From assembly GCF_003334385.1 (NCBI RefSeq), contig NZ_QOWN01000024.1: a DNA stretch of 64,000 nucleotides; one strand, given 5' to 3'. Positions 32,796 to 59,307 of the stretch are shown here, piece by piece; within the stretch, counting starts at the first letter, position 1; each line of letters opens with the position of its first letter. A program made the translations under genes and the position numbers. The notes below the pieces were generated by a model. It worked only from the letters and a program-made list of their open reading frames with translations, searched no databases and was not told the DNA's origin. This DNA is from Escherichia coli. Lineage in GTDB: Bacteria; Pseudomonadota; Gammaproteobacteria; Enterobacterales; Enterobacteriaceae.

Positions 32796-35700
32796 TTACA
32801 CCTTTTCCACATTCACAAGGAAGGACTTAAACTCCGGCGTCTGCGTGTTCGCATCACCAACGAATGGCGTTAAAGTATTGGCAATAAAGCCTTTTTTAGC
32901 TACGCCTTCATAGCCCCAGTGAATCGGAATACCGATGGTATCGATATCTTTGCCGTTCGCTTTCAGCGTGCGAATACGTTTGGTCACCACCGCTTTGGCT
33001 TTGATATAGCCACGGTTGGAGGAGACTTTCACGGTATCGCCCTGGGCAATGCCAAGTTTATTCGCCAGCGACTCCCCGATTTCCACAAACTGCTCTGGCT
33101 GCAAAATCGCGTTCAACAGCGCGTGTTTGGTCCAGTAGTGGAAGTGCTCGGTCAGACGATAGGTGGTTCCGACATACGGGAACTTATCGGCTTTACCCAA
33201 TGCTTCGGCGTCGTCTTTAAAGATACGTGCAGCCGGGTTCGAGATAACGTTTGGATGCAGCGGGTTAGTTCCCAGCGGCGTTTCAAACGGCTCGTAGTGT
33301 TCCGGGAACGGACCTTCCGCCATCTTATCGAGGGCAAACAGACGCCCCATGCCTTCCTGCTGCATGATAAACGGCCCGACGCCGCTACCCGGAGGCGCTG
33401 CGCTGTAGTCCGGAATATCCCAGCCGGTCCACTTAGTGCCGTCCCATTTCAGCAACTGACGCTTCGGATCCCACGGGTTACCCTGCGGATCTGCGGAGGC
33501 GCGGTTATACAGAATGCGGCGGTTAAGCGGCCATGCCCATGCCCAGCCCAGCGTGTTACCGAGGCCAGACGGATCGGCGTTATCACGGCGTGCCATCTGG
33601 TTGCCTTCCGGCGTCCAGCTACCGGCGAAAATCCAGCAGCCACAGGAGGTTGTACCGTCATCGCGCAATTGGGCGAACGAACTAAGTTGTTGGCCTTTCT
33701 TGACGATAACCGCACCGGTTGCCGGATCGGTAATATCGGCCAGCGCCTTACCGTTGCTCTCCATCGCCACTTCTTCTGAAGATGGCTCATGCGGAATGGC
33801 GTAGTTCCATGTCATGTTCAGCACCTGGTCCGGGTTCGCGCCACCCCGTTCGGCATACATCTTGCGCAAGCGCAGGAAGATACCGGAGAGGATCTCGCCG
33901 TCAGTCAGCGCAATCCCCGGGGCGTCCGCACCTTTCCAGTGCCACTGTAACCAGCGACCTGAGTTAACGATAGAACCGTTCTCTTCCGCGAAGCAGGTCG
34001 ATGGCAGACGGAACACTTCGGTCTGGATCTTCGACGAGTCAACTTCGTTCAGCTCACCGTGGTTCTGCCAGAAGTTAGAGGTTTCAGTGTTCAGTGGGTC
34101 GATGGTGACGAGGAACTTCAGTTTCGACAGACAACCGATCACTTTGTTTTTGTTCGGGAATGAGGCAACAGGGTTAAAGCCCTGGCAGATATAGCCATTG
34201 ACCTTGCCCTCTTTCATCATCTCGAAGTATTGCAGGACGTCGTAGCCTTTATCCCACTTCGGCAACCAGTCAAAGCCCCAGCTATTTTCCGCCGTCGCTT
34301 TATCACCAAAGAAGGCCTTCATCATAGAGACGAAGAATTTCGGGTAGTTGCCCCAGTAGTTTACCTGGCCTTCCAGCAGCGGTTTTGGCGTGTTGGCGGT
34401 AAGGTAGGTTTGCAGATCGGTCTGCTTCTCGCTTGGCAGCGTCATGTAACCTGGCAGGCTCTGCGACAGCAGCCCCAGGTCCGTCAGCCCCTGAATATTG
34501 GAGTGACCGCGCAGGGCGTTAACGCCGCCGCCTGCCATCCCCATATTGCCGAGCAGCAGCTGGATCATCGCCATCGTACGAATGTTTTGCGCACCAACGG
34601 AGTGTTGCGTCCAGCCGAGGGCATACAGGAACGAGGCAGTTTTATCGTGAGCACTGGTTTCTGCGATGTATTCGCAGACTTTCAGGAACGCGTCTTTTGG
34701 CGTACCACAGATGTTTTCAACCACATCTGGCGTGTAGCGGGAAACGTGCTGTTTCAGCAAGTTCCACACGCAGCGCGGATGTTGCAGCGTGGTATCGCGT
34801 TTGGCGAAGCCGTTTTCGTCCAGTTCATAAGTCCAGGAGGATTTATCGTACTTGCGTTTTTCCGCGTCGTAGCCGGTGAACAGGCCATCTTCAAAGCCGT
34901 AATCCTCACGCACGATCAGGCTGGCGTTGGTATAGGCTTCGGTGTATTCGCGGTTGAATTTTTCATTGTTCAGCAGGTACAGCAATACGCCTGACAGGAA
35001 AGCAATGTCAGTACCGGAACGAATAGGGGCATAGTAGTCAGCTACCGCCGCCGTACGCGTAAAGCGAGGATCGATCACAATCAGTTTCGCGCCGTTGTGA
35101 ATTTTGGCTTCCATCGCCCAGCGGAACCCGACCGGGTGAGCTTCAGCGGCGTTACCGCCCATCACCACGACGAGGTTGGCGTTCTTGATGTCGACCCAGT
35201 GGTTGGTCATCGCACCGCGACCAAATGTTGGAGCAAGACTTGCTACCGTTGGTCCGTGTCAGACACGCGCCTGGTTGTCGACCGCGAGCATACCCAGCGC
35301 GCGGGAGAATTTTTGCGTTAAATAGCCGGTTTCGTTACTCGACGCGGAAGCACACAGCATCCCGGTGGAGAGCCAGCGGTTAACAGTCACGCCTTCGGCG
35401 TTTTGCGCAATGTAGTTAGCATCGCGGTCTTCTTTCATCAGTTTGGCGATGCGATCAAACGCCTCTTCCCAACTGATTTGCTGCCATTTATCAGAACCTG
35501 GCGCACGGTATTCCGGAAACTTCAGACGGCTTTCGGAGTGGATGAAATCCACCAGGCCAGCGCCTTTCGGACAAAGTGCACCGCGGTTGACCGGGTGATC
35601 CGGATCGCCTTCGATATGGAAGATAGATGCTTTGGCGTTTTTTGCTCCGTCACCGAGGCTGTACATCAACAGCCCACAGCCTACGGAACAATAGGTGCAG

Positions 35701-35846
35701 GTATTACGGGTTTCGCGGGTGCGCAGCAGTTTATACTGCCGGGTTTCCGCGAGTGCTACGCTGGGTGCAAAACCCAGTGCCGCTGCCGTGGTGCCTGCCA
35801 TACCGCCAGCGCAGATCTTAAAGAACTGCCTTCTGCTGACCTGCAT
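32796..35846 (-). CDS. fdoG: formate dehydrogenase-O catalytic subunit (selenocysteine, molybdopterin)
   Basis: ORFs 35259..35846 (Tat signal MQVSRRQFFKICAGGMAGTTAAALGFAPSVALA) and 32796..35210 lie in one frame, joined across in-frame TGA at 35259-35261 (..ARV-U-HGPTVASLAPTFGRGAMTNHW..); 1016 codons total. Confidence 0.93.
35211..35261 (-). other. in-frame UGA selenocysteine codon and adjacent SECIS region of fdoG
   Basis: TGA (plus-strand tca at 35259-35261) within continuous FdoG coding sequence; bacterial SECIS hairpin expected immediately 3' on the mRNA. Confidence 0.7.
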
Positions 35847-36039
35847 GGATTGCTCCTTGTTTCGACATTGTCACGTCCCATTTACATTCGCTTGCTGCGT
35901 GTGCAGGGAGTGGGAGTTATTTTTCTTTGCGGAAGGGGCCGCAAAGGTCCAGAATTGGCTCAATTTCCCTCCATCCAGGAAGGGTTTGTAACAGAATACC
36001 ATAATGTTGGTGTGTGTGTTCTTATCTGGTTAAGAGAAA

Positions 36040-36873
36040 GTGAAAAAAACACAGCGAAAAGAAATCGAAAATGTGACAAATATCACAGGTGTTCGTCAAA
36101 TTGAGTTATGGCGGCGTGATGATTTACAACACCCACGGTTAGATGAGGTCGCGGAAGAAGTTCCCGTTGCGCTGGTCTACAACGGCATTTCGCATGTGGT
36201 GATGATGGCGTCGCCCAAAGACCTTGAGTACTTTGCGCTCGGTTTTTCGCTTTCCGAGGGGATTATCGAAAGTCCGCGCGATATCTTCGGCATGGATGTC
36301 GTTCCTTCCTGTAATGGTCTTGAAGTACAAATTGAGCTTTCCAGCCGCCGCTTTATGGGGTTGAAGGAGCGCCGCCGGGCGCTGGCGGGACGTACGGGCT
36401 GTGGCGTATGCGGCGTGGAGCAACTTAATGACATCGGAAAACCGGTGCAGCCGCTACCGTTCACCCAGACGTTTGATCTCAACAAACTGGATGATGCATT
36501 ACGTCATCTCAACGATTTTCAGCCAGTGGGGCAACTGACTGGTTGTACTCACGCCGCTGCCTGGATGTTGCCATCTGGCGAACTGGTCGGCGGGCATGAA
36601 GACGTGGGTCGCCATGTGGCGCTGGACAAACTGTTAGGCCGCCGGTCACAAGAAGGGGAAAGCTGGCAGCAAGGTGCGGTACTGGTTTCCAGTCGTGCCA
36701 GTTATGAAATGGTGCAAAAGTCGGCGATGTGCGGCGTAGAGATTTTGTTTGCGGTGTCTGCCGCGACCACGCTTGCTGTAGAAGTGGCTGAGCGCTGTAA
36801 TCTGACACTGGTAGGTTTTTGTAAACCGGGTCGGGCAACGGTTTATACCCATCCGCAGCGTTTGAGCAATTAA
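36040..36873 (+). CDS. fdhD: sulfurtransferase FdhD (formate dehydrogenase maturation)
   Basis: 277-aa ORF with GTG start [26 protein letters not shown]; divergent from fdoG. Confidence 0.93.
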
Positions 36874-37025
36874 TTAAAATAAGTCCTGCGAAATATATTA
36901 AATTGCAGGACTTATTCATTTCGTGAATTTTATTATTTTATTTATAAACAAAATGCGTGTAGTGGCGTTTTCTTTTTTCATTTATTATGTTCACTCTCTT
37001 ATCTATATATTTATAAGGCAATTAA

Positions 37026-38081
37026 ATGAAAAGGAATTTATTATCTTCCGCTATTATAGTCGCCATCATGTCCCTCGGTCTGACGGGTTGTGATGATAAA
37101 AAAGCCGAAACAGAAACGCTCCCGCCTGCCAATAGTCAACCTGCCGCACCAGCTCCTGAAGCGAAACCTACTGAAGCTCCCGTTGCAAAAGCAGAAGCTA
37201 AACCTGAAACACCTGCGCAACCGGTGGTCGATGAACAAGCGGTTTTCGACGAAAAAATGGATGTCTATATCAAGTGCTACAACAAGTTACAGATCCCGGT
37301 ACAGCGCAGTCTGGCGCGTTATGCTGACTGGCTGAAAGATTTTAAACAGGGGCCTACCGGTGAAGAGCGTACTGTTTATGGCATCTACGGCATTAGTGAA
37401 TCCAACCTCGCTGAGTGTGAAAAAGGCGTAAAAAGTGCTGTGGCGTTAACGCCTGCGCTGCAACCAATTGATGGCGTGGCGGTGAGTTATATCGATGCTG
37501 CCGTGGCGTTGGGTAATACCATTAACGAAATGGATAAATATTACACCCAGGAAAATTATAAAGACGATGCGTTTGCGAAAGGGAAAACGCTGCACCAGAC
37601 ATTCTTAAAAAATCTGGAAGCCTTTGAACCTGTAGCCGAATCTTATCATGCGGCGATTCAGGAAATTAATGATAAGCGTCAGCTTGCGGAACTGAAAAAT
37701 ATTGAAGAAAGAGAAGGGAAAACATTCCACTACTACTCTCTGGCAGTCATGATTTCAGCGAAACAAATTAATAACCTGATATCGCAAGATAAGTTTGATG
37801 CAGAAGCGGCAATGAAGAAAGTGTCTGAACTGGAAACGCTGGTGGCGCAGGCCAAAGAAGCGGATAAAGGCGGCATGAATTTCTCGTTTATTAATTCGGC
37901 AGGCCAGTATCAACTCGAGGCTAAAAAATACGTTCGCCGCATCAGAGATAAAGTCCCGTACTCTGACTGGGATAAAGAGCAACTTCAGGACGCAAACTCA
38001 AGCTGGATGGTCGAAGACTCTTTCCCGAGAGCATTACGCGAGTACAACGAAATGGTTGATGACTATAATAGCCTGCGTTAA
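37026..38081 (+). CDS. yiiG: putative lipoprotein YiiG (DUF3829)
   Basis: 351-aa ORF; lipobox LTGC after signal peptide MKRNLLSSAIIVAIMSLGLTGC; Pro/Ala-rich linker. Confidence 0.88.
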   Translation: MKRNLLSSAIIVAIMSLGLTGCDDKKAETETLPPANSQPAAPAPEAKPTEAPVAKAEAKPETPAQPVVDEQAVFDEKMDVYIKCYNKLQIPVQRSLARYADWLKDFKQGPTGEERTVYGIYGISESNLAECEKGVKSAVALTPALQPIDGVAVSYIDAAVALGNTINEMDKYYTQENYKDDAFAKGKTLHQTFLKNLEAFEPVAESYHAAIQEINDKRQLAELKNIEEREGKTFHYYSLAVMISAKQINNLISQDKFDAEAAMKKVSELETLVAQAKEADKGGMNFSFINSAGQYQLEAKKYVRRIRDKVPYSDWDKEQLQDANSSWMVEDSFPRALREYNEMVDDYNSLR

Positions 38082-38102
38082 ACGTTTTTGATGATAAATG
38101 CA

Positions 38103-38127
38103 GTGTCGGATGCGGCGCATCCGACAC
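38103..38127. terminator. bidirectional hairpin between convergent yiiG and the frvR-derived ORF
   Basis: Perfect palindrome gtgtcggatgcggcgcatccgacac. Confidence 0.6.
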
Positions 38128-38130
38128 AGT

Positions 38131-39636
38131 TCACCCCTTGTGAAGTAACTCCATAAATGCCTCATATCCTGTTAACCCGGCAATAACCTCTGCCGGATGC
38201 TGACACAATACGCTTGCCAGATAGCTGAATATTTTCAACTCGTGACGCGCATCGGCGGCGGCGCAGGCGATCAAGACATGGTTAATGACTTCGTTATTCA
38301 CCTCAACTGGTTGGGCGAGGGTAATAAAAAATCCACGAAAACGTCGCTCCTGTTCGCTCCAGCAATGTGGGATGGCGAGGCGATTAACAATCAGGTTTTC
38401 ACCTTCGCCTTCGCGGGCGATGATCCGTTGCGCTTCATCGGCGGTAATATGGTGTTGTGCCACTAATTGCGCACAAATTTGCCGGGTAATATGTTGCCAG
38501 CTTTCACCGCGTACATTCGAATAATGAAAACTTCCGGGGGCAGAGAAAAAACGCTCCGGTTGCTGGCGAATAAATGCCGTCGCCAGAAAATGTTTTATTT
38601 GTTCGATACCGGCAGCCGTAATGATATTTTTTACGGTGATGTAATTATTGACCGCGTCATCCAGTAAATAATGGCTGTTGTTAATGATCAATAACGGCTC
38701 AATCTCTTCGCGAATGGCAACAAGTTCGCTTAAGCTACGGGCAATAATCACCCGACAATGTAAAACATCGCGCTCAATGGCGAGCTGATTAATGGTGGCA
38801 ATCGCGTTCTGGTCCGAGAGCAAAATGATCGGCTGGCGTTCGTTTTGATGCCGCTCCAGCGCACAGGCAAAATACAAACCGATCAGATCGCTGTCGAAAA
38901 GGGGAATATCGAGCTGTTCACGCAGTAGCGTAATAAAGTGCAGACTCATATCAAAGGCCGCAGGCCAGGCGGCTTTCAGGTTATTCATGCTGCTCTGGCG
39001 GTGCTCAGCAATCCACACTGGTGCGGCAAGGCAACGTAATAAATGCCCGGTAATATTCTCAACCAGCTGCGCATCAATAATATTCAATGACGCGATGCCC
39101 GGCACCCTTTGCAGCAACCCCTGCACATTATCGGCTGAAATTACCTGCGCTTGCTGATGCTGTTTCTCTATCAAACCCGTCAGGGTTCTTACAGCGTTAT
39201 CACCAAGAAACAGACCGCTATGTTCAACGATTTGTTTTATCTCGTCACCGGGATATTGCGGCCACTCATCGGTCAGTTGATTACGCAGGGCGTAAATCGC
39301 CAGAATCAGGCTGGAGAGATAATCACCCTGCATGAGCGGCCAGCGGTGTTGGTTGTCGCAGGCCGTGGATAAATGCTGAAGGTTGTCTCGTGTTATGCCC
39401 GCCAGCGGAATTAAAAACGGATCTTTGCGCAGCAAGTTCGCCAGCAAGATAACGCGTTTCTCTTCTTCTACCATGGCAAACAGCAGATTACGCGCTTTGT
39501 CGAGATAGATGGCGTAGTTATGCGCACCGTGAGATTTCAGCACTGCTTCCAGTTCTGGCCAGATGGGATTATGCCGACGCTGATACTCTTCGTGGGCGTC
39601 GGGGTTTACCTGCATGACAAAGGCTTTGCGGATCAT
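38131..39636 (-). CDS. chimeric ORF: RhaM (L-rhamnose mutarotase) N-terminal ~57 aa fused in frame to the C-terminal ~444 aa of an FrvR-like regulator
   Basis: Starts [57 protein letters not shown] (RhaM N-terminus, SD GGAG overlapping rhaD stop); continues [17 protein letters not shown]... to a stop convergent with yiiG, where frvR ends in K-12. Confidence 0.7.
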
Positions 39637-39645
39637 GTTTGCTCC

Positions 39646-40471
39646 TTACAGCGCCAGCGCACTGGCGAGTGGCGTAACGCCGAAACGCTTGCCGAGCGCT
39701 ATCAACTCTTCACGGCTGATGGTCTGTTTCATGCCGCCCATCGAATAAACCTTCACTAATACTTGTGCTGATTTTTCTGCGGTGTCGATTAAACCGAAGA
39801 TTTCATCCAGCGTCGGTCCGCTGCCGAAGACGCCGTGGAAGGGCCACAACACCAGCGAATGTTTTTGCATCTCTTGTGCGGTCGCCTGGCCGATTTCGTC
39901 CGTGCCGGGCACCATCCACGGCAAAATGCCAACGCCATCCGGGAATACCACCAGACACTCGGTGCTGCCTTCCCACAGTTGGCGAGTGAAGACCGCGGTG
40001 TCGTTTTCAAGTACATAGGTGAGGGCGGATCAGGTTGGTGGCGTGGCAGTGCATGATCACCCGATCTTTGCCGTTGGTGGCTTTAATGCGCTCGCAGTGG
40101 GAAAGGAAGTGAGCCGGAAGTTCGGAAGTGGGGACGGCTTCGTTGGTTAACCCCCAAAGAATGTGGTAGCCCGCGCCGTCGCTGTCGACTTTTACGATGC
40201 CTAAGTTAGCCGCAGGATCAAGCTGGACGTTACGGAAGAATTTGCCCGAGCCGGTGACAATAAACGGTGTATTTGCCAGTAAAGGCATGGGCTGGCTGAG
40301 CGGGATATAGCGCGGTTGTTGGTGGAAATTGTCGTGATATGGTGCGATATCGGCGTCATCCAGGCGTAGCGTCAGGTTGCCGCCGTTGCGCTCATCCCAG
40401 CCTTTCAGCCAGGCGTCGGTGGTGGCTTTGATCATTCCCTGGACAAACCAGGACTGAGTAATGTTTTGCAT
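39646..40471 (-). pseudogene. rhaD: rhamnulose-1-phosphate aldolase, disrupted by +1 frameshift
   Basis: N-terminal frame from ATG 40471 ([32 protein letters not shown]...HCHATNLI) runs into RPHLCT-stop at 40007; the C-terminal 101 aa (..[21 protein letters not shown]...[11 protein letters not shown]) are in another frame (39646..39951). Span is 826 nt versus the 825 expected. Confidence 0.8.
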
Positions 40472-40510
40472 GTTCTGTGTTCCTGTAAATTCGGTGTTGT
40501 CGGATGCACG

Positions 40511-40735
40511 ACCCGTAGGCCGGATAAGGCGCTCGCGCCGCATCCGGCAATCAATGCCTGATGCGACGCTGTCGCGTCTTATCAGGCCTACAACTATTGC
40601 CGACCTGTAGGCCGGATAAGGCACTTGTGCCGCATCCGGCAATCAATGCCTGATGCGACGCTGTCGCGTCTTATCAGGCCTACAACTGTTGCCGACCCGT
40701 AGGCCGGATAAGGCGCTCGCGCCGCATCCGGCAGT
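40511..40735. repeat. BIME array: about 2.5 tandem copies of a ~100-bp REP-containing unit
   Basis: Unit gtaggccggataaggcgctcgcgccgcatccggcaatcaatgcctgatgcgacgctgtcgcgtcttatcaggcctacaac(t/a)(a/g)ttgccgac repeated between rhaA stop and rhaD start. Confidence 0.9.
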
Positions 40736-40737
40736 GT

Positions 40738-43750
<3,013 letters not shown>

Positions 43751-44587
43751 ATGACCGTATTACATAGTGTGGATTTTTTTCCGTCTGGTAACGCGTCCGT
43801 GGCGATAGAACCCCGGCTCCCGCAGGCGGATTTTCCTGAACATCATCATGATTTTCATGAAATTGTGATTGTCGAACATGGCACGGGTATTCATGTGTTT
43901 AATGGGCAGCCCTATACCATCACCGGTGGCACGGTCTGTTTCGTACGCGATCATGATCGGCATCTGTATGAACATACCGATAATCTGTGTCTGACCAATG
44001 TGCTGTATCGCTCGCCGGATCGATTTCAGTTTCTCGCCGGGCTGAATCAGTTGCTGCCACAAGAGCTGGATGGGCAGTATCCGTCTCACTGGCGCGTTAA
44101 CCACAGCGTATTGCAGCAGGTGCGACAGCTGGTTGCACAGATGGAACAGCAGGAAGGGGAAAATGATTTACCCTCGACCGCCAGTCGCGAGATCTTGTTT
44201 ATGCAATTACTGCTCTTGCTGCGTAAAAGCAGTTTGCAGGAGAACCTGGAAAACAGCGCATCACGTCTCAACTTGCTTCTGGCCTGGCTGGAGGACCATT
44301 TTGCCGATGAGGTGAATTGGGATGCCGTGGCGGATCAATTTTCTCTTTCACTGCGTACGCTACATCGGCAGCTTAAGCAGCAAACGGGACTGACGCCTCA
44401 GCGATACCTGAACCGCCTGCGACTGATGAAAGCCCGACATCTGCTACGCCACAGCGAGGCCAGCGTTACTGACATCGCCTATCGCTGTGGATTCAGCGAC
44501 AGTAACCACTTTTCGACGCTTTTTCGCCGAGAGTTTAACTGGTCACCGCGTGATATTCGCCAGGGACGGGATGGCTTTCTGCAATAA
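43751..44587 (+). CDS. rhaS: AraC-family activator of rhaBAD and rhaT
   Basis: 278-aa [48 protein letters not shown]-terminal AraC HTH. Confidence 0.95.
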
Positions 44588-44660
44588 CGCGAATCTTCTC
44601 AACGTATTTGTACGCCATATTGCGAATAATCAACTTCGTTCTCTGGCCGAGGTAGCCACG

Positions 44661-45509
44661 GTGGCGCATCAGTTAAAACTTCTCAAAGATGATTTTTTTG
44701 CCAGCGACCAGCAGGCAGTCGCTGTGGCTGACCGTTATCCGCAAGATGTCTTTGCTGAACATACACATGATTTTTGTGAGCTGGTGATTGTCTGGCGCGG
44801 TAATGGCCTGCATGTACTCAACGATCGCCCTTATCGCATTACCCGTGGCGATCTCTTTTACATTCATGCTGACGATAAACACTCCTACGCTTCCGTTAAC
44901 GATCTGGTTTTGCAGAATATTATTTATTGCCCGGAGCGTCTGAAGCTGAATCTTGACTGGCAGGGGGCGATTCCGGGATTTAACGCCAGCGCAGGGCAAC
45001 CACACTGGCGCTTAGGTAGCATGGGGATGGCGCAGGCGCGGCAGGTTATCGGTCAGCTTGAGCATGAAAGTAGTCAGCATGTGCCGTTTGCTAACGAAAT
45101 GGCTGAGTTGCTGTTCGGGCAGTTGGTGATGTTGCTGAATCGCCATCGTTACACCAGTGATTCGTTGCCGCCAACATCCAGCGAAACGTTGCTGGATAAG
45201 CTGATTACCCGGCTGGCGGCTAGCCTGAAAAGTCCCTTTGCGCTGGATAAATTTTGTGATGAGGCATCGTGCAGTGAGCGCGTTTTGCGTCAGCAATTTC
45301 GCCAGCAGACTGGAATGACCATCAATCAATATCTGCGACAGGTCAGAGTGTGTCATGCGCAATATCTTCTCCAGCATAGCCGCCTGTTAATCAGTGATAT
45401 TTCGACCGAATGTGGCTTTGAAGATAGTAACTATTTTTCGGTGGTGTTTACCCGGGAAACCGGGATGACGCCCAGCCAGTGGCGTCATCTCAATTCGCAG
45501 AAAGATTAA
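44661..45509 (+). CDS. rhaR: AraC-family activator of rhaSR
   Basis: ORF 44487..45509; GTG at 44661 gives a 282-aa product ([18 protein letters not shown]); an upstream ATG at 44571 ([10 protein letters not shown], 312 aa) overlapping the rhaS stop is an alternative start. Confidence 0.85.
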
Positions 45510-46540
45510 TTCGCCATGCCGATGCCGACGATGTTAGCGGCGACAATAATCACCACACAACCGAGGCTCAACACCGTTACCGGACGGCGTCCTGCATTGT
45601 TCCACTCTTTCAGCACCAGCCCGACGATACCGCCGCACAATACATAGAAACTCATATGCAGCATCCAACTGATGTAGTCATACTGCGCCGGAATGCGGGC
45701 GTGGCCCCAGGCATAGAAAAAGAATTGCAGATACCACATCAACCCGCCCAGTGTCGAGAGTAACACATTGTGAATGATCAGCGATTTTGCCAGCGAGAAG
45801 TCGGCTTTTAGCGACAAATCCTTCACTTTTGCCAGACGAATAAAACAGAAACCGAGGTTAATGATCGCGCCGCCGCCCATGATGACAACATAGCTTGGCA
45901 GAGCGACATACAGTGGATCGACGCCAAGTGCGGCAGCGGCTTCATGCATCGGTTTTGCGGCGTTCATCGCAAAGGACATCCCGGCAGAGAAAATGCCGCA
46001 CATCACCGCCAGCACCAGCCCTTTTTTCAGATTGAACTCTTCGGCTTTAATGCCCATCTTGCGCTCTTTCAACTGCCCGGCGCGAGTTACAATCCCTACG
46101 CCAATCAGCGCCACCAGAACGCCGAGCAACGTCATGCGTCCGCCTTCGGTGCTAATCAACACATCGAAATTGCCGTTGATAATTGGCGTCATCAGCGTAC
46201 CGACAATCAACGTAATGCCAATGGCGATGCCAATTCCCATCGACATGCCGAGATAACGCATGGTCAGGCCGTAGTTGATATTACCGATCCCCCACATAGC
46301 GCCGAACAGAAAAACAGGCAGTAGCGTAGAGAGACTAAACGAGCTGTAATACGCCCAGAAATTCGGTAGTAACAGGGCGCTGATGGCCCACGGCAGAATA
46401 ATCCACGAAACAATCCCACCGACTGACCACATGGTTTCCCATGACCATTTTTTTACTTTTTTGAACGGAGCGTAAAAACAGGCTGCACTGGCCGCGCCGA
46501 TCAAATGCCAAAATATCCCCATCGTAATCGCGTTACTCAT
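45506..46540 (-). CDS. rhaT: L-rhamnose-proton symporter
   Basis: 344-aa polytopic [41 protein letters not shown]. Confidence 0.95.
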
Positions 46541-46824
46541 CTTCTTATCCTCATCATTTTTCGTCGCGTCACATCTCCGACGAGATGAGTGTAAAAATCG
46601 TGCTGTCGATTAACCTTTCGCCTGTTGCCGCTGTTGTCGATTTACTGGCAATCACGGCATTAAGTGGGTGATTTGCTTCACATCTCGGGCATTTTCCTGC
46701 AAAACCATACCCTTACGAAAAGTACGGCATTGATAATCATTTTCAATATCATTTAATTAACTATAATGAACCAACTGCTTACGCGGCATTAACAATCGGC
46801 CGCCCGACAATACTGGAGATGAAT

Positions 46825-47445
46825 ATGAGCTATACCCTGCCATCCCTGCCGTATGCTTACGATGCCCTGGAACCGCACTTCGATAAGCAGACCATGGAAA
46901 TCCACCACACCAAACACCATCAGACCTACGTAAACAACGCCAACGCGGCGCTGGAAAGCCTGCCAGAATTTGCCAACCTGCCGGTTGAAGAGCTGATCAC
47001 CAAACTGGACCAGCTGCCAGCAGACAAGAAAACCGTACTGCGCAACAACGCTGGCGGTCACGCTAACCACAGCCTGTTCTGGAAAGGTCTGAAAAAAGGC
47101 ACCACCCTGCAGGGTGACCTGAAAGCGGCTATCGAACGTGACTTCGGCTCCGTTGATAACTTCAAAGCAGAATTTGAAAAAGCGGCAGCTTCCCGCTTTG
47201 GTTCCGGCTGGGCATGGCTGGTGCTGAAAGGCGATAAACTGGCGGTGGTTTCTACTGCTAACCAGGATTCTCCGCTGATGGGTGAAGCTATTTCTGGCGC
47301 TTCCGGCTTCCCGATTATGGGCCTGGATGTGTGGGAACATGCTTACTACCTGAAATTCCAGAACCGCCGTCCGGACTACATTAAAGAGTTCTGGAACGTG
47401 GTGAACTGGGACGAAGCAGCGGCACGTTTTGCGGCGAAAAAATAA
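46825..47445 (+). CDS. sodA: manganese superoxide dismutase
   Basis: ORF 46819..47445 trimmed to [38 protein letters not shown], 206 aa; SD GGAG upstream. Confidence 0.97.
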
Positions 47446-47704
47446 TCATTTGCCGCCTGCTGCAATGAGGCGTATAGGCCGCATATCAGCTTAAAAAATG
47501 AACCATCGCCAACGGCGGTGGTTTTTTTGTGAACAATTTCAAAATAAAAACAATGATCCGATAAAAATAAAACAGCGTTTCAATTGATGTGGTTTTGATC
47601 ACTTTTATTGATTAAATGAATGTCTATCTTCGTTTCCATCAACACTGATGCTCCATTGAGGAATTACGCATCAGCCCTTAAAAATATGCCGACAGGTGAT
47701 GGAA

Positions 47705-48688
47705 ATGCAGATAAAACGCTCGATTGAGAAAATCCCGGGGGGGATGATGCTCGTCCCGCTATTCCTTGGCGCACTGTGCCACACCTTCTCGCCGGGGGCG
47801 GGGAAATATTTTGGATCATTCACCAACGGGATGATTACCGGTACGGTGCCCATTCTGGCGGTGTGGTTTTTTTGCATGGGGGCGTCAATAAAATTAAGCG
47901 CGACGGGAACGGTACTGCGTAAATCCGGTACGCTGGTGGTAACTAAAATTGCCGTCGCGTGGGTGGTTGCGGCAATTGCCTCGCGTATTATTCCGGAACA
48001 TGGTGTTGAAGTTGGATTCTTTGCCGGACTTTCAACGCTGGCGCTGGTGGCGGCGATGGATATGACCAATGGCGGACTTTACGCTTCCATCATGCAGCAG
48101 TACGGCACAAAAGAAGAAGCTGGGGCATTTGTGTTGATGTCGTTGGAGTCCGGGCCGCTCATGACGATGATTATTCTGGGCACTGCCGGGATTGCCTCGT
48201 TTGAACCGCATGTTTTCGTCGGCGCAGTATTACCGTTCCTGGTGGGCTTTGCCCTGGGGAACCTTGACCCTGAATTGCGAGAATTTTTCAGCAAAGCGGT
48301 GCAAACGCTGATTCCATTCTTTGCCTTCGCGCTGGGCAATACCATTGATTTGACTGTGATTGCCCAGACTGGTTTGCTGGGGATCCTGTTGGGTGTGGCA
48401 GTAATTATCGTGACCGGTATTCCGTTGATTATCGCCGATAAATTGATTGGCGGTGGCGATGGCACTGCCGGAATTGCCGCTTCCAGTTCCGCAGGGGCCG
48501 CGGTAGCGACACCTGTGCTGATTGCAGAAATGGTGCCTGCGTTTAAACCGATGGCTCCGGCAGCAACTTCGCTGGTAGCGACGGCGGTCATTGTGACTTC
48601 GATTCTGGTGCCAATTCTTACCTCTATCTGGTCACGTAAAGTCAAAGCCAGAGCAGCGAAAATCGAAATTTTAGGTACGGTGAAATAA
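47705..48688 (+). CDS. kdgT: 2-keto-3-deoxygluconate permease
   Basis: ORF 47696..48688 trimmed to [23 protein letters not shown], 327 aa membrane protein. Confidence 0.93.
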
Positions 48689-48836
48689 ACCTGCTTCCTT
48701 AATCCCCACAGCCGGATGAACTAACGTTCGTCCGGTTTGCTATTGAGTTCCTGCCTGGATACTTACCGCGAAAACAGCACGCCTGACATAAAATAAATAT
48801 GGTCTAATGGGGAAATTTCTCGTGGAGAGGGAACAG

Positions 48837-49511
48837 ATGCGATATCCGGTTGATGTATACACAGGCAAGATTCAGGCTTATCCCGAAGGCAAACCCAGCG
48901 CAATTGCTAAAATCCAGGTTGATGGTGAGTTGATGCTGACGGAGCTGGGGCTGGAAGGTGACGAGCAGGCGGAGAAAAAGGTTCACGGCGGGCCAGACAG
49001 AGCGCTGTGTCATTATCCTCGTGAGCATTATCTCTACTGGGCGCGGGAATTTCCGGAACAGGCGGAGTTGTTTGTTGCGCCTGCGTTTGGTGAAAACCTC
49101 TCAACCGACGGCCTGACGGAAAGTAATGTTTATATGGGCGATATTTTCCGCTGGGGAGAGGCATTAATTCAGGTCAGCCAGCCGCGCTCGCCTTGCTATA
49201 AACTCAATTACCATTTTGATATCAGCGATATAGCGCAGTTGATGCAAAACACAGGTAAGGTGGGGTGGTTGTATAGCGTGATAGCGCCAGGGAAAGTGTC
49301 TGCGGACGCGCCGCTGGAGTTGGTTTCCCGTGTCAGCGATGTGACCGTGCAGGAGGCTGCCGCCATCGCATGGCATATGCCGTTTGATGACGATCAATAT
49401 CACCGTTTACTCTCCGCTGCCGGGTTATCGAAAAGCTGGACGCGGACGATGCAAAAGCGCCGACTGAGCGGCAAGATCGAAGATTTTTCCCGCCGGTTGT
49501 GGGGAAAATAA
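48837..49511 (+). CDS. yiiM: MOSC-domain protein (N-hydroxylated base analog detoxification)
   Basis: ORF 48807..49511 trimmed to MRYPVDVYTGKIQAYPEGKPSAIAK, 224 aa. Confidence 0.88.
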   Translation: MRYPVDVYTGKIQAYPEGKPSAIAKIQVDGELMLTELGLEGDEQAEKKVHGGPDRALCHYPREHYLYWAREFPEQAELFVAPAFGENLSTDGLTESNVYMGDIFRWGEALIQVSQPRSPCYKLNYHFDISDIAQLMQNTGKVGWLYSVIAPGKVSADAPLELVSRVSDVTVQEAAAIAWHMPFDDDQYHRLLSAAGLSKSWTRTMQKRRLSGKIEDFSRRLWGK

Positions 49512-49520
49512 CCCCCGGAG

Positions 49521-49606
49521 TGTAGGCCTGATAAGACGCTATCAGCGTCGCATCAGGCATCCTGCTCAAATGCCTGATGCGGCGTAAACGCCTTATCCTG
49601 CCTGCA
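49521..49606. repeat. REP palindromic elements
   Basis: gtaggcctgataagacgctatcagcgtcgcatcaggc and gcctgatgcggcgtaaacgccttatcc between convergent yiiM and cpxA. Confidence 0.8.
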
Positions 49607-49616
49607 AATGCGAAGT

Positions 49617-50990
49617 TTAACTCCGCTTATACAGCGGCAACCAAATCACCAGCCGTAAACCGCCCAGCGGGCTGTCTTCTGCCTTCACCCAGCCACGATG
49701 CTGCTGAATGGCGGTTTCAACAATCGCCAGCCCCAAACCTGTACCGCCAGATTCACGATCGCGTGCTTCATCGGTACGATAGAACGGACGGAAAATCTGT
49801 TCGCGATCTTCCGGGCTAACGCCAGGACCATCGTCGTCCACCGTAATGGTGATACCGTCTTTATCTACCGCAAAGCCCACTTCAATCTTCGTATGGGAAT
49901 AACGCAGAGCATTACGAACAATGTTTTCCAGCGCACTTTCCAGGGCGTTCGGATTGCCGTACAGCGGCCACGGCCCAGGCGGGAAGTTAACTGTCAACGA
50001 CTTGCCCATTTGCTCGGCTTCGAACGCCGCGTTATCCAGCACTTCACTCCACAACTGGTTGGCTTTGATGGTTTCGCTAACCAGCGCGTTTTTTTGCTGA
50101 TTACGTGACATCACCAACAGATCGTTGATCATGCTGTCCAGACGTTGCGCTTCGGTTTCAATACGCTCCAGTTCCTTGCTTTCACCGCTACGACGGCGCA
50201 GTAACGCCGTACCCAGTTGCAGACGCGTCAGCGGGGTGCGCAGCTCGTGAGAGATATCAGAAAGCAGACGCTGCTGAGAGGTCATCATGCGCTCCAGCGC
50301 GGTGACCATCTGGTTAAAACTGGCACCTGCGGCAAGGAATTCCTGTGGCCCCGCTTCCAGTTCCGGGTGCTGGCGTAAGTTTCCCTGGGCAACTTCATCG
50401 GCAGCGTTTTTCAGCTTACGCGCCGGTTTTGCCAGACTCCAGGCCAACCACAACAGCAGCGGCGTACTGACCAACATGGTGACAATCAGCAGTAATAGCG
50501 GGCGGTCAAACAGTAAGTTAATGAAATCGGATTGAGAACTGCTGGCCGGACGAATCAGATAAAGTTGGTAATTATCTTCGCCATCACGCACGGAGAACGG
50601 ACCGACCAGTTCCACGCGGCCATACTTTTTCTTCTGCGGATGATCGGCGTTATCGGCCTGACCAATAAAGTTACGAATGATCTGCATTTCGCTGCGTTCA
50701 GCGCCGATCACGCGGCCTTCGGTGGTCACCAATAACAAACGCTGTCCTGGCGGTGCCCACTTATCAATCGCCCGGAACAGACGCCGCCACCACATTAAAT
50801 CGTTGGGCGGATCGTTCGCCAGCTCCGCTTCGACATGCTGCTCAATCATCAGCCCCTGACGCTGTTCGCTATCCAGAAGCTCGGTCATCTGGCGTGAATC
50901 GAGCTTGGGTAACATCAAAACCAACATCAACACCAGCGCCAGCGTCAGCCAGAAGATGGCGAAGATGCGCGCGGTTAAGCTGCCTATCAT
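49617..50990 (-). CDS. cpxA: envelope stress sensor histidine kinase CpxA
   Basis: 457-aa ORF MIGSLTARIFAIFWLTLALVLMLVLML; HAMP, H-box HELRTPLTRL, ATPase G-boxes. Confidence 0.95.
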   Translation of the reverse strand: MIGSLTARIFAIFWLTLALVLMLVLMLPKLDSRQMTELLDSEQRQGLMIEQHVEAELANDPPNDLMWWRRLFRAIDKWAPPGQRLLLVTTEGRVIGAERSEMQIIRNFIGQADNADHPQKKKYGRVELVGPFSVRDGEDNYQLYLIRPASSSQSDFINLLFDRPLLLLIVTMLVSTPLLLWLAWSLAKPARKLKNAADEVAQGNLRQHPELEAGPQEFLAAGASFNQMVTALERMMTSQQRLLSDISHELRTPLTRLQLGTALLRRRSGESKELERIETEAQRLDSMINDLLVMSRNQQKNALVSETIKANQLWSEVLDNAAFEAEQMGKSLTVNFPPGPWPLYGNPNALESALENIVRNALRYSHTKIEVGFAVDKDGITITVDDDGPGVSPEDREQIFRPFYRTDEARDRESGGTGLGLAIVETAIQQHRGWVKAEDSPLGGLRLVIWLPLYKRS

Positions 50991-51685
50991 GAAGCAGAAA
51001 CCATCAGATAGCCGCGACCACGCAAGGTTTTAAACCACGGGTGACCATCTTTACGATCCGGCAGTTTACGACGCAGGTTGGAAATGTGCATATCAATAGC
51101 GCGGTCGAAAGGCGTCAGGCGTTTGCCCAACACTTCCTGGCTTAAATGTTCACGGGAAACCACCTGACCCAGATGCTGTGCCAGCAAATAGAGCAGGGTA
51201 AACTCAGTACCGGTTAACTCCAGCGTTTGCCCGTCGAAGCTGGCTTCCTGACGGCCTGGATTCAGCACTAAGGCATCAACTTCCAGTGTCGGTGAACCGT
51301 TGTCGTTGTTTTGCTGTTGCTCGCTCCAGTGCGAACGGCGCAGGATCGCGCGAATACGTGCCACCAGCTCACGATCATTAAACGGTTTCGGGAGATAGTC
51401 ATCTGCGCCCAGCTCAAGGCCGAGAACGCGATCAAGTTCACTGCCGCGCGCCGTCAACATAATGACAGGCGTCTGGTGTGTCTGGCGAAGTGCTTTTAAT
51501 GTGTCGATACCATTTTTCTTCGGCATCATTACGTCAAGCAAAAGTAAATCAATGCTGTCGTCCAGAAGATCAAGCGCCTGTTCCCCATCGTGGGCAACAA
51601 TCACGTTGAAGCCTTCCATCTCGAGCAGCTCCTTTAATAGGGAAGTCAGCTCTCGGTCATCATCAACTAACAGGATTTTATTCAT
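50987..51685 (-). CDS. cpxR: envelope stress response regulator CpxR (OmpR family)
   Basis: 232-aa ORF MNKILLVDDDRELTSLLKELLEMEGF; overlaps cpxA start by 4 nt. Confidence 0.96.
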   Translation of the reverse strand: MNKILLVDDDRELTSLLKELLEMEGFNVIVAHDGEQALDLLDDSIDLLLLDVMMPKKNGIDTLKALRQTHQTPVIMLTARGSELDRVLGLELGADDYLPKPFNDRELVARIRAILRRSHWSEQQQNNDNGSPTLEVDALVLNPGRQEASFDGQTLELTGTEFTLLYLLAQHLGQVVSREHLSQEVLGKRLTPFDRAIDMHISNLRRKLPDRKDGHPWFKTLRGRGYLMVSAS

Positions 51686-51740
51686 TGTTTAAATACCTCC
51701 GAGGCAGAAATTACGTCATCAGACGTCGCTAATCCATGAC

Positions 51741-51800
51741 TTTACGTTGTTTTACACCCCCTGACGCATGTTTGCAGCCTGAATCGTAAACTCTCTATCG
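51741..51800 (-). promoter_or_regulatory. CpxR-P binding boxes in the cpxR-cpxP divergent promoter region
   Basis: Minus strand GTAAAacaacGTAAA at 51741-51755 (CpxR consensus GTAAA-N5-GTAAA) and a further GTAAA half-site near 51786. Confidence 0.7.
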
Positions 51801-51834
51801 TTGAATCGCGACAGAAAGATTTTGGGAGCAAATG

Positions 51835-52335
51835 ATGCGCATAGTTACCGCTGCCGTCATGGCCTCAACGCTGGCAGTCAGTTCATTAAGCCACGCTGCT
51901 GAAGTCGGTTCAGGCGATAACTGGCATCCGGGTGAAGAACTTACGCAGCGCAGTACGCAGAGCCATATGTTCGACGGCATAAGTTTAACCGAACATCAGC
52001 GTCAGCAGATGCGAGATCTTATGCAACAGGCCCGGCACGAACAGCCTCCTGTTAATGTTAGCGAACTGGAGACAATGCATCGCCTTGTCACCGCAGAAAA
52101 TTTTGATGAAAACGCTGTGCGCGCACAGGCAGAAAAAATGGCGAATGAGCAAATTGCTCGTCAGGTTGAGATGGCAAAAGTCCGCAACCAAATGTATCGC
52201 CTGTTAACGCCGGAGCAGCAAGCGGTTTTAAACGAGAAACATCAACAACGAATGGAGCAGTTGCGTGACGTGACGCAATGGCAAAAAAGTTCATCGTTGA
52301 AGCTATTGAGTAGTAGCAACTCACGTTCCCAGTAG
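51835..52335 (+). CDS. cpxP: periplasmic Cpx pathway inhibitor/adaptor CpxP
   Basis: ORF 51832..52335; [21 protein letters not shown] signal peptide; LTxxQ motifs ([18 protein letters not shown]). Confidence 0.93.
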
Positions 52336-52344
52336 TAAACCCTG

Positions 52345-52402
52345 TTTTCCTTGCCATAGACACCATCCCTGTCTTCCCCCACATGCTGTGGGGGTTTTTT
52401 TT
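52345..52402 (+). ncRNA. cpxQ: cpxP 3'UTR-derived sRNA (CpxQ-like) ending at the cpxP terminator
   Basis: Sequence ttccttgccatagacaccatccctgtcttcccccacatgctgtgggggtttttttt immediately after the cpxP stop; hairpin cccccacatgctgtggggg plus T8. 5' end approximate. Confidence 0.5.
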
Positions 52403-52483
52403 ATCCTCAATTTGCCTGCTGCTTAATGCATTGCAGATGATTTGCTTCCGTTATACTAGCGTCAGTTGATAGCGGGAGTATTT

Positions 52484-53386
52484 ATGAATCAATCTTATGG
52501 ACGGCTGGTCAGTCGGGCGGCGATTGCTGCGACGGCGATGGCTTCGCTGCTATTGCTGATTAAAATTTTTGCATGGTGGTATACCGGGTCGGTGAGTATT
52601 CTCGCCGCGCTGGTGGATTCGCTGGTGGATATCGGCGCGTCGTTGACGAATTTATTGGTGGTGCGATATTCCCTGCAACCTGCCGACGATAATCACTCGT
52701 TTGGTCACGGTAAAGCTGAGTCCCTCGCGGCGCTGGCGCAAAGTATGTTTATCTCCGGTTCGGCACTATTCCTGTTTTTGACGGGTATTCAACATCTGAT
52801 ATCTCCAACACCGATGACAGATCCAGGCGTCGGGGTTATCGTGACAATTGTGGCGCTAATTTGTACGATTATCCTTGTCTCGTTTCAGCGTTGGGTGGTG
52901 CGGCGGACGCAAAGCCAGGCGGTGCGGGCTGATATGCTACATTACCAGTCTGATGTTATGATGAACGGCGCAATTCTGCTGGCGCTGGGGTTGTCCTGGT
53001 ACGGCTGGCATCGCGCCGATGCTCTGTTTGCATTGGGAATCGGCATCTATATTTTATATAGCGCGTTACGCATGGGATATGAGGCGGTACAGTCATTACT
53101 GGATCGCGCATTGCCTGATGAGGAACGGCAAGAAATTATTGATATCGTGACTTCCTGGCCGGGTGTTAGCGGCGCTCACGATCTTCGCACGCGGCAGTCA
53201 GGGCCGACCCGCTTTATTCAGATTCATTTGGAAATGGAAGACTCTCTGCCTTTGGTTCAGGCACATATGGTGGCGGATCAGGTAGAGCAGGCTATTTTAC
53301 GGCGTTTTCCGGGATCGGATGTAATTATCCATCAGGACCCCTGTTCCGTCGTACCCAGGGAGGGTAAACGGTCTATGCTTTCATAA
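52484..53386 (+). CDS. fieF: cation diffusion facilitator (Fe/Zn efflux) FieF/YiiP
   Basis: ORF 52466..53386 trimmed to [49 protein letters not shown], 300 aa. Confidence 0.93.
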
Positions 53387-53566
53387 TCAGTATAAAAGAG
53401 AGCCAGACCCGCATTTTGTGTATAAAATACCGCCATTTGGCCTGACCTGAATCAATTCAGCAGGAAGTGATTGTTATACTATTTGCACATTCGTTGGATC
53501 ACTTCGATGTGCAAGAAGACTTCCGGCAACAGATTTCATTTTGCATTCCAAAGTTCAGAGGTAGTC

Positions 53567-54529
53567 ATGATTAAGAAAATCGGTGTGTTGACAAGCGGCG
53601 GTGATGCGCCAGGCATGAACGCCGCAATTCGCGGGGTTGTTCGTTCTGCGCTGACAGAAGGTCTGGAAGTAATGGGTATTTATGACGGCTATCTGGGTCT
53701 GTATGAAGACCGTATGGTACAGCTAGACCGTTACAGCGTGTCTGACATGATCAACCGTGGCGGTACGTTCCTCGGTTCTGCGCGTTTCCCGGAATTCCGC
53801 GACGAGAACATCCGCGCCGTGGCTATCGAAAACCTGAAAAAACGTGGTATCGACGCGCTGGTGGTTATCGGCGGTGACGGTTCCTACATGGGTGCAATGC
53901 GTCTGACCGAAATGGGCTTCCCGTGCATCGGTCTGCCGGGCACTATCGACAACGACATCAAAGGCACTGACTACACTATCGGTTTCTTCACTGCGCTGAG
54001 CACCGTTGTAGAAGCGATCGACCGTCTGCGTGACACCTCTTCTTCTCACCAGCGTATTTCCGTGGTGGAAGTGATGGGCCGTTATTGTGGAGATCTGACG
54101 TTGGCTGCGGCCATTGCCGGTGGCTGTGAATTCGTTGTGGTTCCGGAAGTTGAATTCAGCCGTGAAGACCTGGTAAACGAAATCAAAGCGGGTATCGCGA
54201 AAGGTAAAAAACACGCGATCGTGGCGATTACCGAACATATGTGTGATGTTGACGAACTGGCGCATTTCATCGAGAAAGAAACCGGTCGTGAAACCCGCGC
54301 AACTGTGCTGGGCCACATCCAGCGCGGTGGTTCTCCGGTGCCTTACGACCGTATTCTGGCTTCCCGTATGGGCGCTTACGCTATCGATCTGCTGCTGGCA
54401 GGTTACGGCGGTCGTTGTGTAGGTATCCAGAACGAACAGCTGGTTCACCACGACATCATCGACGCTATCGAAAACATGAAGCGTCCGTTCAAAGGTGACT
54501 GGCTGGACTGCGCGAAAAAACTGTATTAA
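53567..54529 (+). CDS. pfkA: 6-phosphofructokinase I
   Basis: ORF 53471..54529 trimmed to [26 protein letters not shown] with SD GAGG upstream, 320 aa. Confidence 0.97.
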
Positions 54530-54584
54530 TGATTTCGGAAAAAGGCAGATTCCTTTACCCTGAAACCGATGACAGAAGCAAAAA

Positions 54585-54692
54585 TGCCTGATGCGCTTCG
54601 CTTATCAGGCCTACATGAATTCTGCAATTTATTGAATTTGCAAACTTTTGTAGGCCGGATAAGGCGTTCGCGCCGCATCCGGCATGGACAAA
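54585..54692. repeat. REP palindromic elements
   Basis: atgcctgatgcgcttcgcttatcaggcctac ... gtaggccggataaggcgttcgcgccgcatccggc between pfkA and sbp. Confidence 0.8.
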
Positions 54693-54848
54693 GCGCACTT
54701 TGTCAGCAATATGAGGCGGATTTCTTCCGCCTTTTTAATCCCTCAACATATACCCGCAAGTTATAGCCAATCTTTTTTTATTCTTTAATGTTTGGTTAAC
54801 CTTCTGGCACGCTTTGCTCATCACAACACAACATAAGAGAGTCGGGCG

Positions 54849-55838
54849 ATGAACAAGTGGGGCGTAGGGTTAACATTTTTGCTGGCGGCAACCAGCGTTA
54901 TGGCAAAGGATATTCAGCTTCTTAACGTTTCATATGATCCAACGCGCGAATTGTACGAACAGTACAACAAGGCATTCAGCGCCCACTGGAAACAGCAAAC
55001 TGGTGATAACGTGGTGATTCGTCAGTCACACGGTGGCTCAGGTAAACAAGCGACGTCGGTAATCAACGGTATTGAAGCTGATGTTGTCACGCTGGCTCTG
55101 GCCTATGACGTGGACGCAATTGCGGAACGCGGGCGGATTGATAAAGAGTGGATCAAACGTCTGCCGGATAACTCCGCACCGTACACTTCCACCATTGTTT
55201 TCCTGGTACGTAAGGGAAATCCGAAGCAGATCCATGACTGGAACGATCTGATTAAACCGGGTGTTTCGGTGATCACGCCTAATCCGAAAAGCTCTGGTGG
55301 CGCGCGCTGGAACTACCTGGCAGCCTGGGGCTACGCGCTGCATCACAACAACAACGATCAGGCAAAAGCACAGGATTTTGTTCGGGCACTGTATAAAAAC
55401 GTCGAAGTTCTGGATTCTGGCGCGCGTGGCTCCACTAACACTTTTGTCGAGCGCGGAATTGGCGATGTACTGATTGCCTGGGAAAACGAAGCTCTGCTGG
55501 CAGCGAATGAACTGGGGAAAGATAAATTCGAAATCGTCACGCCGAGTGAGTCTATCCTCGCAGAGCCAACCGTGTCGGTGGTCGATAAAGTGGTCGAGAA
55601 AAAAGGTACTAAAGAGGTGGCGGAAGCCTACCTGAAATATCTCTACTCGCCAGAAGGTCAGGAAATTGCCGCGAAAAACTACTACCGTCCGCGCGACGCT
55701 GAGGTGGCGAAAAAGTACGAAAATGCGTTTCCAAAGCTGAAGTTATTCACCATTGATGAAGAGTTCGGCGGCTGGACGAAAGCGCAAAAAGAGCATTTTG
55801 CTAACGGCGGTACGTTCGATCAGATCAGCAAACGCTGA
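54849..55838 (+). CDS. sbp: periplasmic sulfate-binding protein
   Basis: 329-aa [39 protein letters not shown]. Confidence 0.95.
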
Positions 55839-55860
55839 TTTCCCCAGGATAATTATCAAA

Positions 55861-55890
55861 CCCGGTGGTTTCTCGCGACCGGGTTTTTTA
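55861..55890 (+). terminator. rho-independent terminator after sbp
   Basis: Hairpin cccggtggtttctcgcgaccggg followed by a T-run. Confidence 0.75.
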
Positions 55891-55944
55891 TTTGTCACGA
55901 TTTTGCGTTACCCTTGCATCTCTTTGAGGTACAGGGAAAAAAAG

Positions 55945-56700
55945 ATGAAAAAAGCGGGTCTTCTTTTTTTGGTGATGATAGTTATCGCCGTTGTGGCTGC
56001 CGGTATTGGTTACTGGAAATTAACCGGTGAAGAGTCGGATACATTACGTAAGATTGTCCTTGAGGAATGTTTGCCCAATCAGCAGCAAAATCAAAATCCT
56101 TCGCCATGTGCGGAAGTCAAACCCAATGCCGGATACGTGGTTTTAAAAGATCTTAATGGCCCACTGCAATATCTGTTGATGCCAACGTATCGTATTAACG
56201 GTACTGAAAGTCCTTTGTTGACCGATCCTTCAACGCCGAACTTCTTTTGGTTGGCTTGGCAGGCGCGTGATTTTATGAGCAAAAAATACGGCCAGCCGGT
56301 TCCCGATCGCGCGGTTTCTTTGGCGATCAACTCCCGCACCGGGCGTACGCAAAACCATTTTCATATTCATATCTCTTGTATTCGTCCTGATGTGCGCAAA
56401 CAGCTGGATAACAATCTGGCGAACATCAGCAGCCGCTGGTTGCCACTGCCAGGTGGTTTGCGCGGGCATGAATACCTGGCGCGTCGGGTAACGGAAAGCG
56501 AACTGGTACAACGCAGCCCATTTATGATGCTGGCAGAAGAAGTACCTGAGGCGCGGGAACATATGGGACGCTACGGGCTGGCGATGGTACGGCAGAGTGA
56601 TAACTCATTTGTATTGCTGGCGACACAACGAAATCTACTGACGCTTAACCGTGCTTCAGCCGAGGAAATTCAGGATCATCAGTGTGAGATTTTGCGTTAA
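55945..56700 (+). CDS. cdh: CDP-diacylglycerol pyrophosphatase
   Basis: ORF 55753..56700 trimmed to [26 protein letters not shown], 251 aa; HxHxH motif (NHFHIHISC). Confidence 0.92.
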
Positions 56701-56721
56701 GGCGAAGAGTTAAGGAAAGTA

Positions 56722-56746
56722 AGTGCCGGATATGAAATCCGGCACC
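56722..56746. terminator. bidirectional hairpin between convergent cdh and tpiA
   Basis: gtgccggatatgaaatccggcac palindrome. Confidence 0.6.
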
Positions 56747-56754
56747 TGTCAGAC

Positions 56755-57522: not shown

Positions 57523-57629
57523 TTTAATTCTCCACGCTTATAAGCGAATAAAGGAAGATGGCCGCCCCGCAGGGCAGCAGGTCTGTGAAACAGTATAGAG
57601 ATTCATCGGCACAAAGGCTTTGCTTTTTG

Positions 57630-58229: not shown

Positions 58230-58329
58230 TGACAGTACCTTTTGTTATGACTGGCTCCGATTAAAACGATATCTGTCGCCCTTGTCAAAAGGGTAGAATC
58301 CTGGAAAAGACAACCATCAAGGAACTTAC

Positions 58330-58770: not shown

Positions 58771-58981
58771 CCTTTAATATATCTCTTACTGCTATTTTTT
58801 TCCGGGATTGTTATTTCCACGATGCAAATGACAATACCCGGAAAATCCTTCTGAACTCTTCACCTTAAGCAATATCAAAAAAAATGGTAATCCATAAGAT
58901 CATTACTTGTTTGTTCTTCCCTTAACGGCGCATTATTCTTAAGTCGTAATCGACAGAGAGGCGAATATACAGAGGTGCCCT

Positions 58982-59281: not shown

Positions 59282-59307
59282 TGGAGTTGCTTTAGAAGGA
59301 GTTAAAC

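Follow-up and report, generated by a model that had tools for sequence, protein, structure and literature searches.

The rha locus analysed here lies in a stretch of 64,000 nucleotides from an Escherichia coli contig (NZ_QOWN01000024.1), referred to below as the window, which is syntenic with E. coli K-12 through hemN, glnALG, the yih (sulfoquinovose) cluster, fdo, rha, sodA, cpx, pfkA and tpiA, up to glpK. Within it, rhaD occupies its usual position as the third gene of the rhaBAD operon, beside the divergent rhaSR and rhaT. The features on which our analysis is based are as follows.

38131..39636, minus strand: in-frame chimeric ORF of 501 aa, joining RhaM residues 1 to about 57 to FrvR residues 139-582
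39646..40471, minus strand: rhaD pseudogene (L-rhamnulose-1-phosphate aldolase), 826 nt against 825 nt in K-12
39646..40026, minus strand: C-terminal part of rhaD, residues 149-274, in the adjacent frame and out of register with the start codon
39800 (plus-strand G>A), minus strand: second change in rhaD, T224I (ACC>ATC), 3' of the frameshift and 228 bp from the inserted C
40007..40471, minus strand: N-terminal rhaD frame of 154 aa, from the ATG at 40471 through RhaD residues 1-148 (MQNITQSW......HCHATNLI) and RPHLCT to a TGA (40007-40009)
40027..40028, minus strand: site of the inserted base, coding CC against a single C in the reference (G on the plus strand), where either position may be the extra base
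40518..40680, plus strand: two REP/naRNA4 elements in the rhaA-rhaD spacer (40472-40737)
40738..41997, minus strand: rhaA (L-rhamnose isomerase), intact, 419/419 residues and the DNA identical to K-12
41994..43463, minus strand: rhaB (rhamnulokinase), intact, 489/489 residues identical to K-12
43464..43750, no strand assigned: divergent rhaBAD/rhaSR promoter region, identical to K-12
43751..44587, plus strand: rhaS (activator), intact, 278/278 residues identical to K-12
44661..45509, plus strand: rhaR (activator), intact, 282/282 residues identical to K-12
45506..46540, minus strand: rhaT (rhamnose/H+ symporter), intact and full length, 343/344 residues identical to K-12

Compared base by base with rhaD of K-12 MG1655, the gene in the window shows two differences only, a C inserted after nucleotide 444 and 671C>T. 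The insertion falls after codon 148, where the coding strand reads ATC-C-GCC instead of the ATC-GCC found in both K-12 MG1655 and E. coli SCU-104. A tblastn search with K-12 RhaD aligns residues 1-148 to 40471..40028 and residues 149-274 to 40026..39649, and the adjacent frame, translated from 40029, reads through ALTYVLEND... to the normal C-terminus ...TPLASALAL, with a TAA at 39646-39648. The original prediction, made from the sequence alone, had described rhaD as split by a single-base insertion, and this is borne out by translation, by tblastn and by comparison with K-12 and SCU-104. Translation also reproduced its reading of the RhaD N-terminus from the ATG at 40471 to HCHATNLI and then RPHLCT-stop, its figure of 826 nt against 825 agrees with the K-12 comparison, and its placing of the extra base near 40026 was right to within 1-2 nt. 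It was correct in assigning the C-terminal part to the adjacent frame, but not in giving the complete C-terminal part as 101 aa, as 126 residues are readable there and 101 aa is the length of the ORF that begins at the first GTG (39951). Comparison with the reference rhaD confirmed one extra base and revealed T224I in addition, a change that was absent from the earlier account, as was the rhaM-frvR deletion described below. Residue 224 is Ala in E. marmotae, so that this position is not invariant. A repeat or quasi-palindrome able to template the extra C was sought at the insertion site, and none was found.

Between 40734 and 46322 the window shows zero DNA differences from K-12, and the earlier claim that rhaB, rhaA, rhaS, rhaR and rhaT look intact holds, each being full-length and 100% identical to its K-12 protein save for the single residue in RhaT. 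The transporter, activators, isomerase, kinase and promoters are all intact, which is the genotype expected of an aldolase-null strain with an active kinase. Apart from rhaD, the rha operon has a further defect, a truncated mutarotase RhaM. A 3,822-bp deletion has removed frvA, frvB and frvX entirely, together with the 3' portion of rhaM and the 5' portion of frvR, and its junction, at about 39465-39469, shows a microhomology of 3-4 nt (AGA/AGAG). Only SCU-104 has the same junction among 5,426 complete E. coli genomes, while 59 contigs encode exactly this RhaM-FrvR chimera, E. coli KTE14 and one sequence under the label Shigella boydii among them. On the other side of rhaD, the rhaA-rhaD spacer measures 266 bp in the window. 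The K-12 spacer is longer, at 450 bp, and that of an ENA metagenome contig discussed below (ERZ28647534 scaffold_1301) has 366 bp, indicating that the REP copy number varies between strains.

The window is 99.98% identical to SCU-104 (NZ_CP053284.1), and over 63.6 kb the two differ by 14 SNPs, one 12-bp cpxP repeat unit, two IS insertions (both in SCU-104) and one 1-bp indel. Using K-12 to polarise these differences over about 60 kb, we assign five events to the window's branch: YihP G175S (15953), YihU V91L (23325), RhaD T224I (39800), the rhaD insertion, and an intergenic T>A (47533). T224I is therefore derived on this branch, and two of the five events fall within the 826 bp of rhaD. All three coding SNPs of the branch are non-synonymous, and the SNP at 47533 lies between sodA and kdgT, just past a T-run resembling the sodA terminator. 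Three changes are found in SCU-104 only and are absent from the window: the 12-bp tandem duplication in cpxP (8829-8840 of the compared SCU-104 stretch), an IS10-like element (ISVsa5) that splits yiiG (23238-24446 of the same stretch), and IS421 between glpK and glpX (2113-3225 of a second compared stretch). No IS element was found in the 64-kb window. A Shigella origin, to which the Shigella boydii label on the chimeric protein might point, was set aside in view of this and of the 99.98% identity to SCU-104.

SCU-104, KTE14 (GCA_000407805.1) and other carriers share the deletion and the 501-aa chimera with the window, whereas their rhaD is wild type. Neither rhaD change is present in five other members of the deletion lineage, namely SCU-104, KTE14 and three further loci (L018, L019 and L023), and the context of an intact rhaD together with the deletion was found in 17 further similar places, against one for the broken rhaD. 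The allele with the extra C was found in none of the 5,426 complete E. coli genomes in RefSeq, where the best identity was 99.8%, and neither rhaD change occurs on the deletion background among these genomes. Nor did the mutant allele give an exact 31-mer match in JGI metagenome contigs or in GTDB species-representative genomes. Given their absence from the deletion-lineage relatives and from the 5,426 complete genomes, both changes are recent and limited to a sub-clone.

The two changes are also found apart from each other. The haplotype of ERZ28647534 scaffold_1301 carries the extra C without T224I, together with an intact rhaM and frvA and five SNPs in rhaB, and a K-12-like haplotype (Logan SRR31654802_103, 68-892) has a full-length rhaD with T224I and no extra C. 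All four combinations of the two changes thus exist, which implies either recurrence or recombination within 230 bp. Beyond these, at least eight other independent lesions that disrupt rhaD were found in public assemblies when looked up via the K-12-type 101-aa C-terminal ORF: Y152*, W166*, delta-431C, delta-500A, delta-317G with delta-491A, delta-464A, a 148-bp deletion and a substitution pair. Broken rhaD alleles are therefore not rare curiosities, and the count, which lacks a baseline for other genes, shows only that.

If rhaD is a repeated target of mutation in natural E. coli that retain an active kinase, has its loss been selected rather than arisen by accident? The clustering of two of the five branch changes in one gene, the presence of the same inserted C on another haplotype and of T224I by itself on a third, and the further lesions just listed would all fit such a hypothesis. 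However, rhaD was chosen for analysis because of its frameshift, and once this is allowed for, there is a chance of about 5% that one or more of the four other SNPs would fall in rhaD, a figure that is no more than suggestive. The lesions come from a collection with reads from millions of runs, again without a baseline from other genes, and members of the lineage mostly keep a wild-type rhaD. Moreover, wherever rhamnose is available, lacking the aldolase while having an active kinase should do harm (PMC11784389). We therefore regard selected loss as improbable. Were it true, a block at the final step of rhamnose catabolism would be tolerated, or even be of use, in certain gut niches, possibly through avoidance of lactaldehyde and 1,2-propanediol production or, alternatively, through rhamnulose-1-phosphate held as a signal, and either benefit would run contrary to the expectation of sugar-phosphate toxicity.

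A different explanation would be that the extra base is a sequencing or assembly error and that the true genome carries an intact rhaD of 274 codons. Single-base indels are the commonest assembly errors, and the insertion adjoins a GATC site, the Dam motif, which is a known trouble spot for nanopore base-callers. The fallback offered with the original prediction, a homopolymer sequencing error, finds no support, since the change is from C to CC, a run of one base becoming two, and the same allele occurs in several other public assemblies and runs. Two recorded contigs, one of them the Logan contig described next, encode exactly the truncated protein of 154 aa. An NCBI contig, DABAMG010000011.1 (draft assembly GCA_012504395.1), matches the window over 6,506 nt at 100% identity and has both the extra C and T224I, and a Logan contig from ERR1948963, common to seven runs, matches over 3,532 nt at 100% identity and has both changes along with the rhaM-frvR fusion. 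The identical insertion is found on a different haplotype in ERZ28647534 scaffold_1301 (rhaD at 3001-3826). The draft assembly and ERR1948963, which is possibly its read set, are not certainly independent of the window, whereas the seven runs and the metagenome contig are. In addition, the inserted C is the sole 1-bp indel in the 63.6 kb compared with SCU-104, so that the assembly is not riddled with indel errors, and it occurs together with a SNP specific to the clone, 228 bp away. Taken together, these observations make an artefact highly improbable, and the insertion is very probably a genuine and recent loss-of-function allele of an E. coli clone.

E. coli RhaD is a zinc-dependent class II aldolase, which converts L-rhamnulose-1-phosphate to DHAP and L-lactaldehyde. 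Its zinc ligands are His141, His143 and His212, and Glu117 is catalytic (PMC3870299). The 154-aa fragment keeps Glu117, His141 and His143 and lacks His212 along with everything beyond residue 148, and with His212 beyond the frameshift, no single polypeptide encoded in the window carries the three ligands together with Glu117. Residues 149-156 (ALTYVLEN), which begin directly after the insertion, are the same in all six RhaD sequences compared, which come from Escherichia, Salmonella and Klebsiella. As a test of family membership we used the NCBIfam model TIGR02624 (family also PRK03634; Pfam PF00596), which has an equivalog cut-off of 400.95 bits. Once the frame is corrected, the translation reaches 468 bits, against 236 bits for the N-terminal fragment and 169.5 bits for the 101-aa C-terminal fragment; thus, none of the encoded products gives a full-length RhaD match above the curated cut-off, and the C-terminal fragment falls below both curated cut-offs. 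By descent, the DNA of the locus is rhaD, and none of its predicted products qualifies as RhaD.

Could the split gene still work, either through +1 ribosomal frameshifting near the TGA or through assembly of the two fragments? Low-level +1 slippage can happen at sites of this kind, with a stop in frame seven codons past the shift, but the sequence CGC CCT CAC CTA TGT ACT TGA has neither a slippery codon of the CUU-U type nor a Shine-Dalgarno-like element upstream, and the frameshifted product would carry RPHLCT in place of ALTYVL (149-154), within the stretch that is invariant in the six RhaD sequences. The extra base is absent from the best 30 of 5,363 alignments to rhaD in complete genomes (coverage of at least 80%), all 30 of which span 825 nt, and from rhaD of the closest relatives, so that the frameshift is not conserved among orthologues. 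Conservation, a slippery codon and a Shine-Dalgarno-like stimulator, as seen in programmed +1 frameshifts of the prfB type, are thus all lacking here. As for assembly, residues 149-173 are missing from both callable fragments (1-148 and 174-274), the second is without a ribosome-binding site, and both score under the family cut-off. The chance of a working product by either route is negligible. With His212 and 126 C-terminal residues lost, residues 149-156 invariant in the six RhaD sequences, both fragments below the cut-off and no recoding signal, we conclude from the sequence that the allele is null and that active rhamnulose-1-phosphate aldolase cannot be made.

The proposed course of events is as follows. 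The C inserted after codon 148 would lead the ribosome through six wrong codons to a stop, leaving a fragment of 154 residues. Uptake of rhamnose, induction of the operon, the isomerase and the kinase would be unchanged, so that rhamnose would be converted to L-rhamnulose-1-phosphate without an exit. To our knowledge, E. coli has neither a non-phosphorylated route for rhamnose nor another aldolase for L-rhamnulose-1-phosphate. We strongly infer that the strain is rhamnose-negative. Growth inhibition by rhamnose through the build-up of the sugar phosphate is plausible by analogy: a Salmonella rhaD mutant given rhamnose was severely attenuated in the mouse gut (PMC11784389), and inhibition of S. 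typhosa by rhamnose is attributed to Englesberg 1960, as cited in PMC11784389. The rhamnose-negative and rhamnose-sensitive phenotype of the original prediction agrees with this work on Salmonella, the only genus in which a precedent was found. Sensitivity would depend on flux, catabolite repression and phosphatases; the latter two could soften the effect, as could the truncation of RhaM, which may lower the flux. The persistence of the rhaD-null clone across several sequenced isolates suggests that any toxicity is mild or rarely met and that its cost is bearable.

Among known systems, the closest is rhaD of E. coli K-12 itself (RhuA; solved structures including PDB 1GT7 and 1OJR; TIGR02624), which is the same gene in the same place in rhaBAD, with the same DNA but for the inserted C and one SNP. 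Unlike K-12 RhaD, the frame in the window is broken after codon 148, leaving His212 and the 126 C-terminal residues unjoined to the rest, and T224I is present too. The genotype also resembles the classic sugar-phosphate toxicity mutants, null for an aldolase or epimerase, of Salmonella rhaD and E. coli araD, in which uptake, induction and the kinase are kept but the enzyme that acts last, on a phosphorylated intermediate, is missing (PMC11784389). It differs from them in that it is a natural E. coli allele, known from sequence, in a strain that is also missing full-length RhaM.

Our literature searches for a described rhaD pseudogene or allele in E. coli returned nothing relevant. The allele is already in public assemblies and is an ordinary frameshift in a textbook operon, with nothing new in kind; it brings no new gene, mechanism or system. 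It is mildly unusual only in the pattern of recurrence or recombination of the inserted C and T224I and in the occurrence of two changes in one gene on a short branch. Its practical value is small: it predicts a rhamnose-negative biochemical profile that is usable for typing, and such a strain would leave the inducer of rhamnose-inducible expression systems unconsumed. As a natural genotype combining a null aldolase with an active kinase, it could also serve as a model for how much rhamnulose-1-phosphate toxicity weighs on gut E. coli, which has until now been studied with engineered Salmonella mutants.

Along the window, identity to K-12 changes in steps, from 94.5-98.1% in the yih/gln part (1-23591) to 99.5% in the fdo/yii part (23472-39469) and 99.95% from rhaA to fpr (40505-60287), which suggests a recombination mosaic. 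Between yihR and yihQ lies an ORF of 291 aa (18633-19508, minus strand), for whose counterpart the SCU-104 annotation gives a sulfite exporter of the TauE/SafE family; in K-12 MG1655 this site is without a gene, and the alignment of the window with K-12 breaks there. Finally, the gene for the alpha subunit of formate dehydrogenase-O (fdnG in reference records) appears to be broken by a TGA in frame between the ORFs at 32796-35210 and 35259-35846. A SECIS element (Rfam RF01989, 84 bits) is present at the TGA (35206-35264, minus strand), marking it as a normal selenocysteine codon, so that the gene is no pseudogene.
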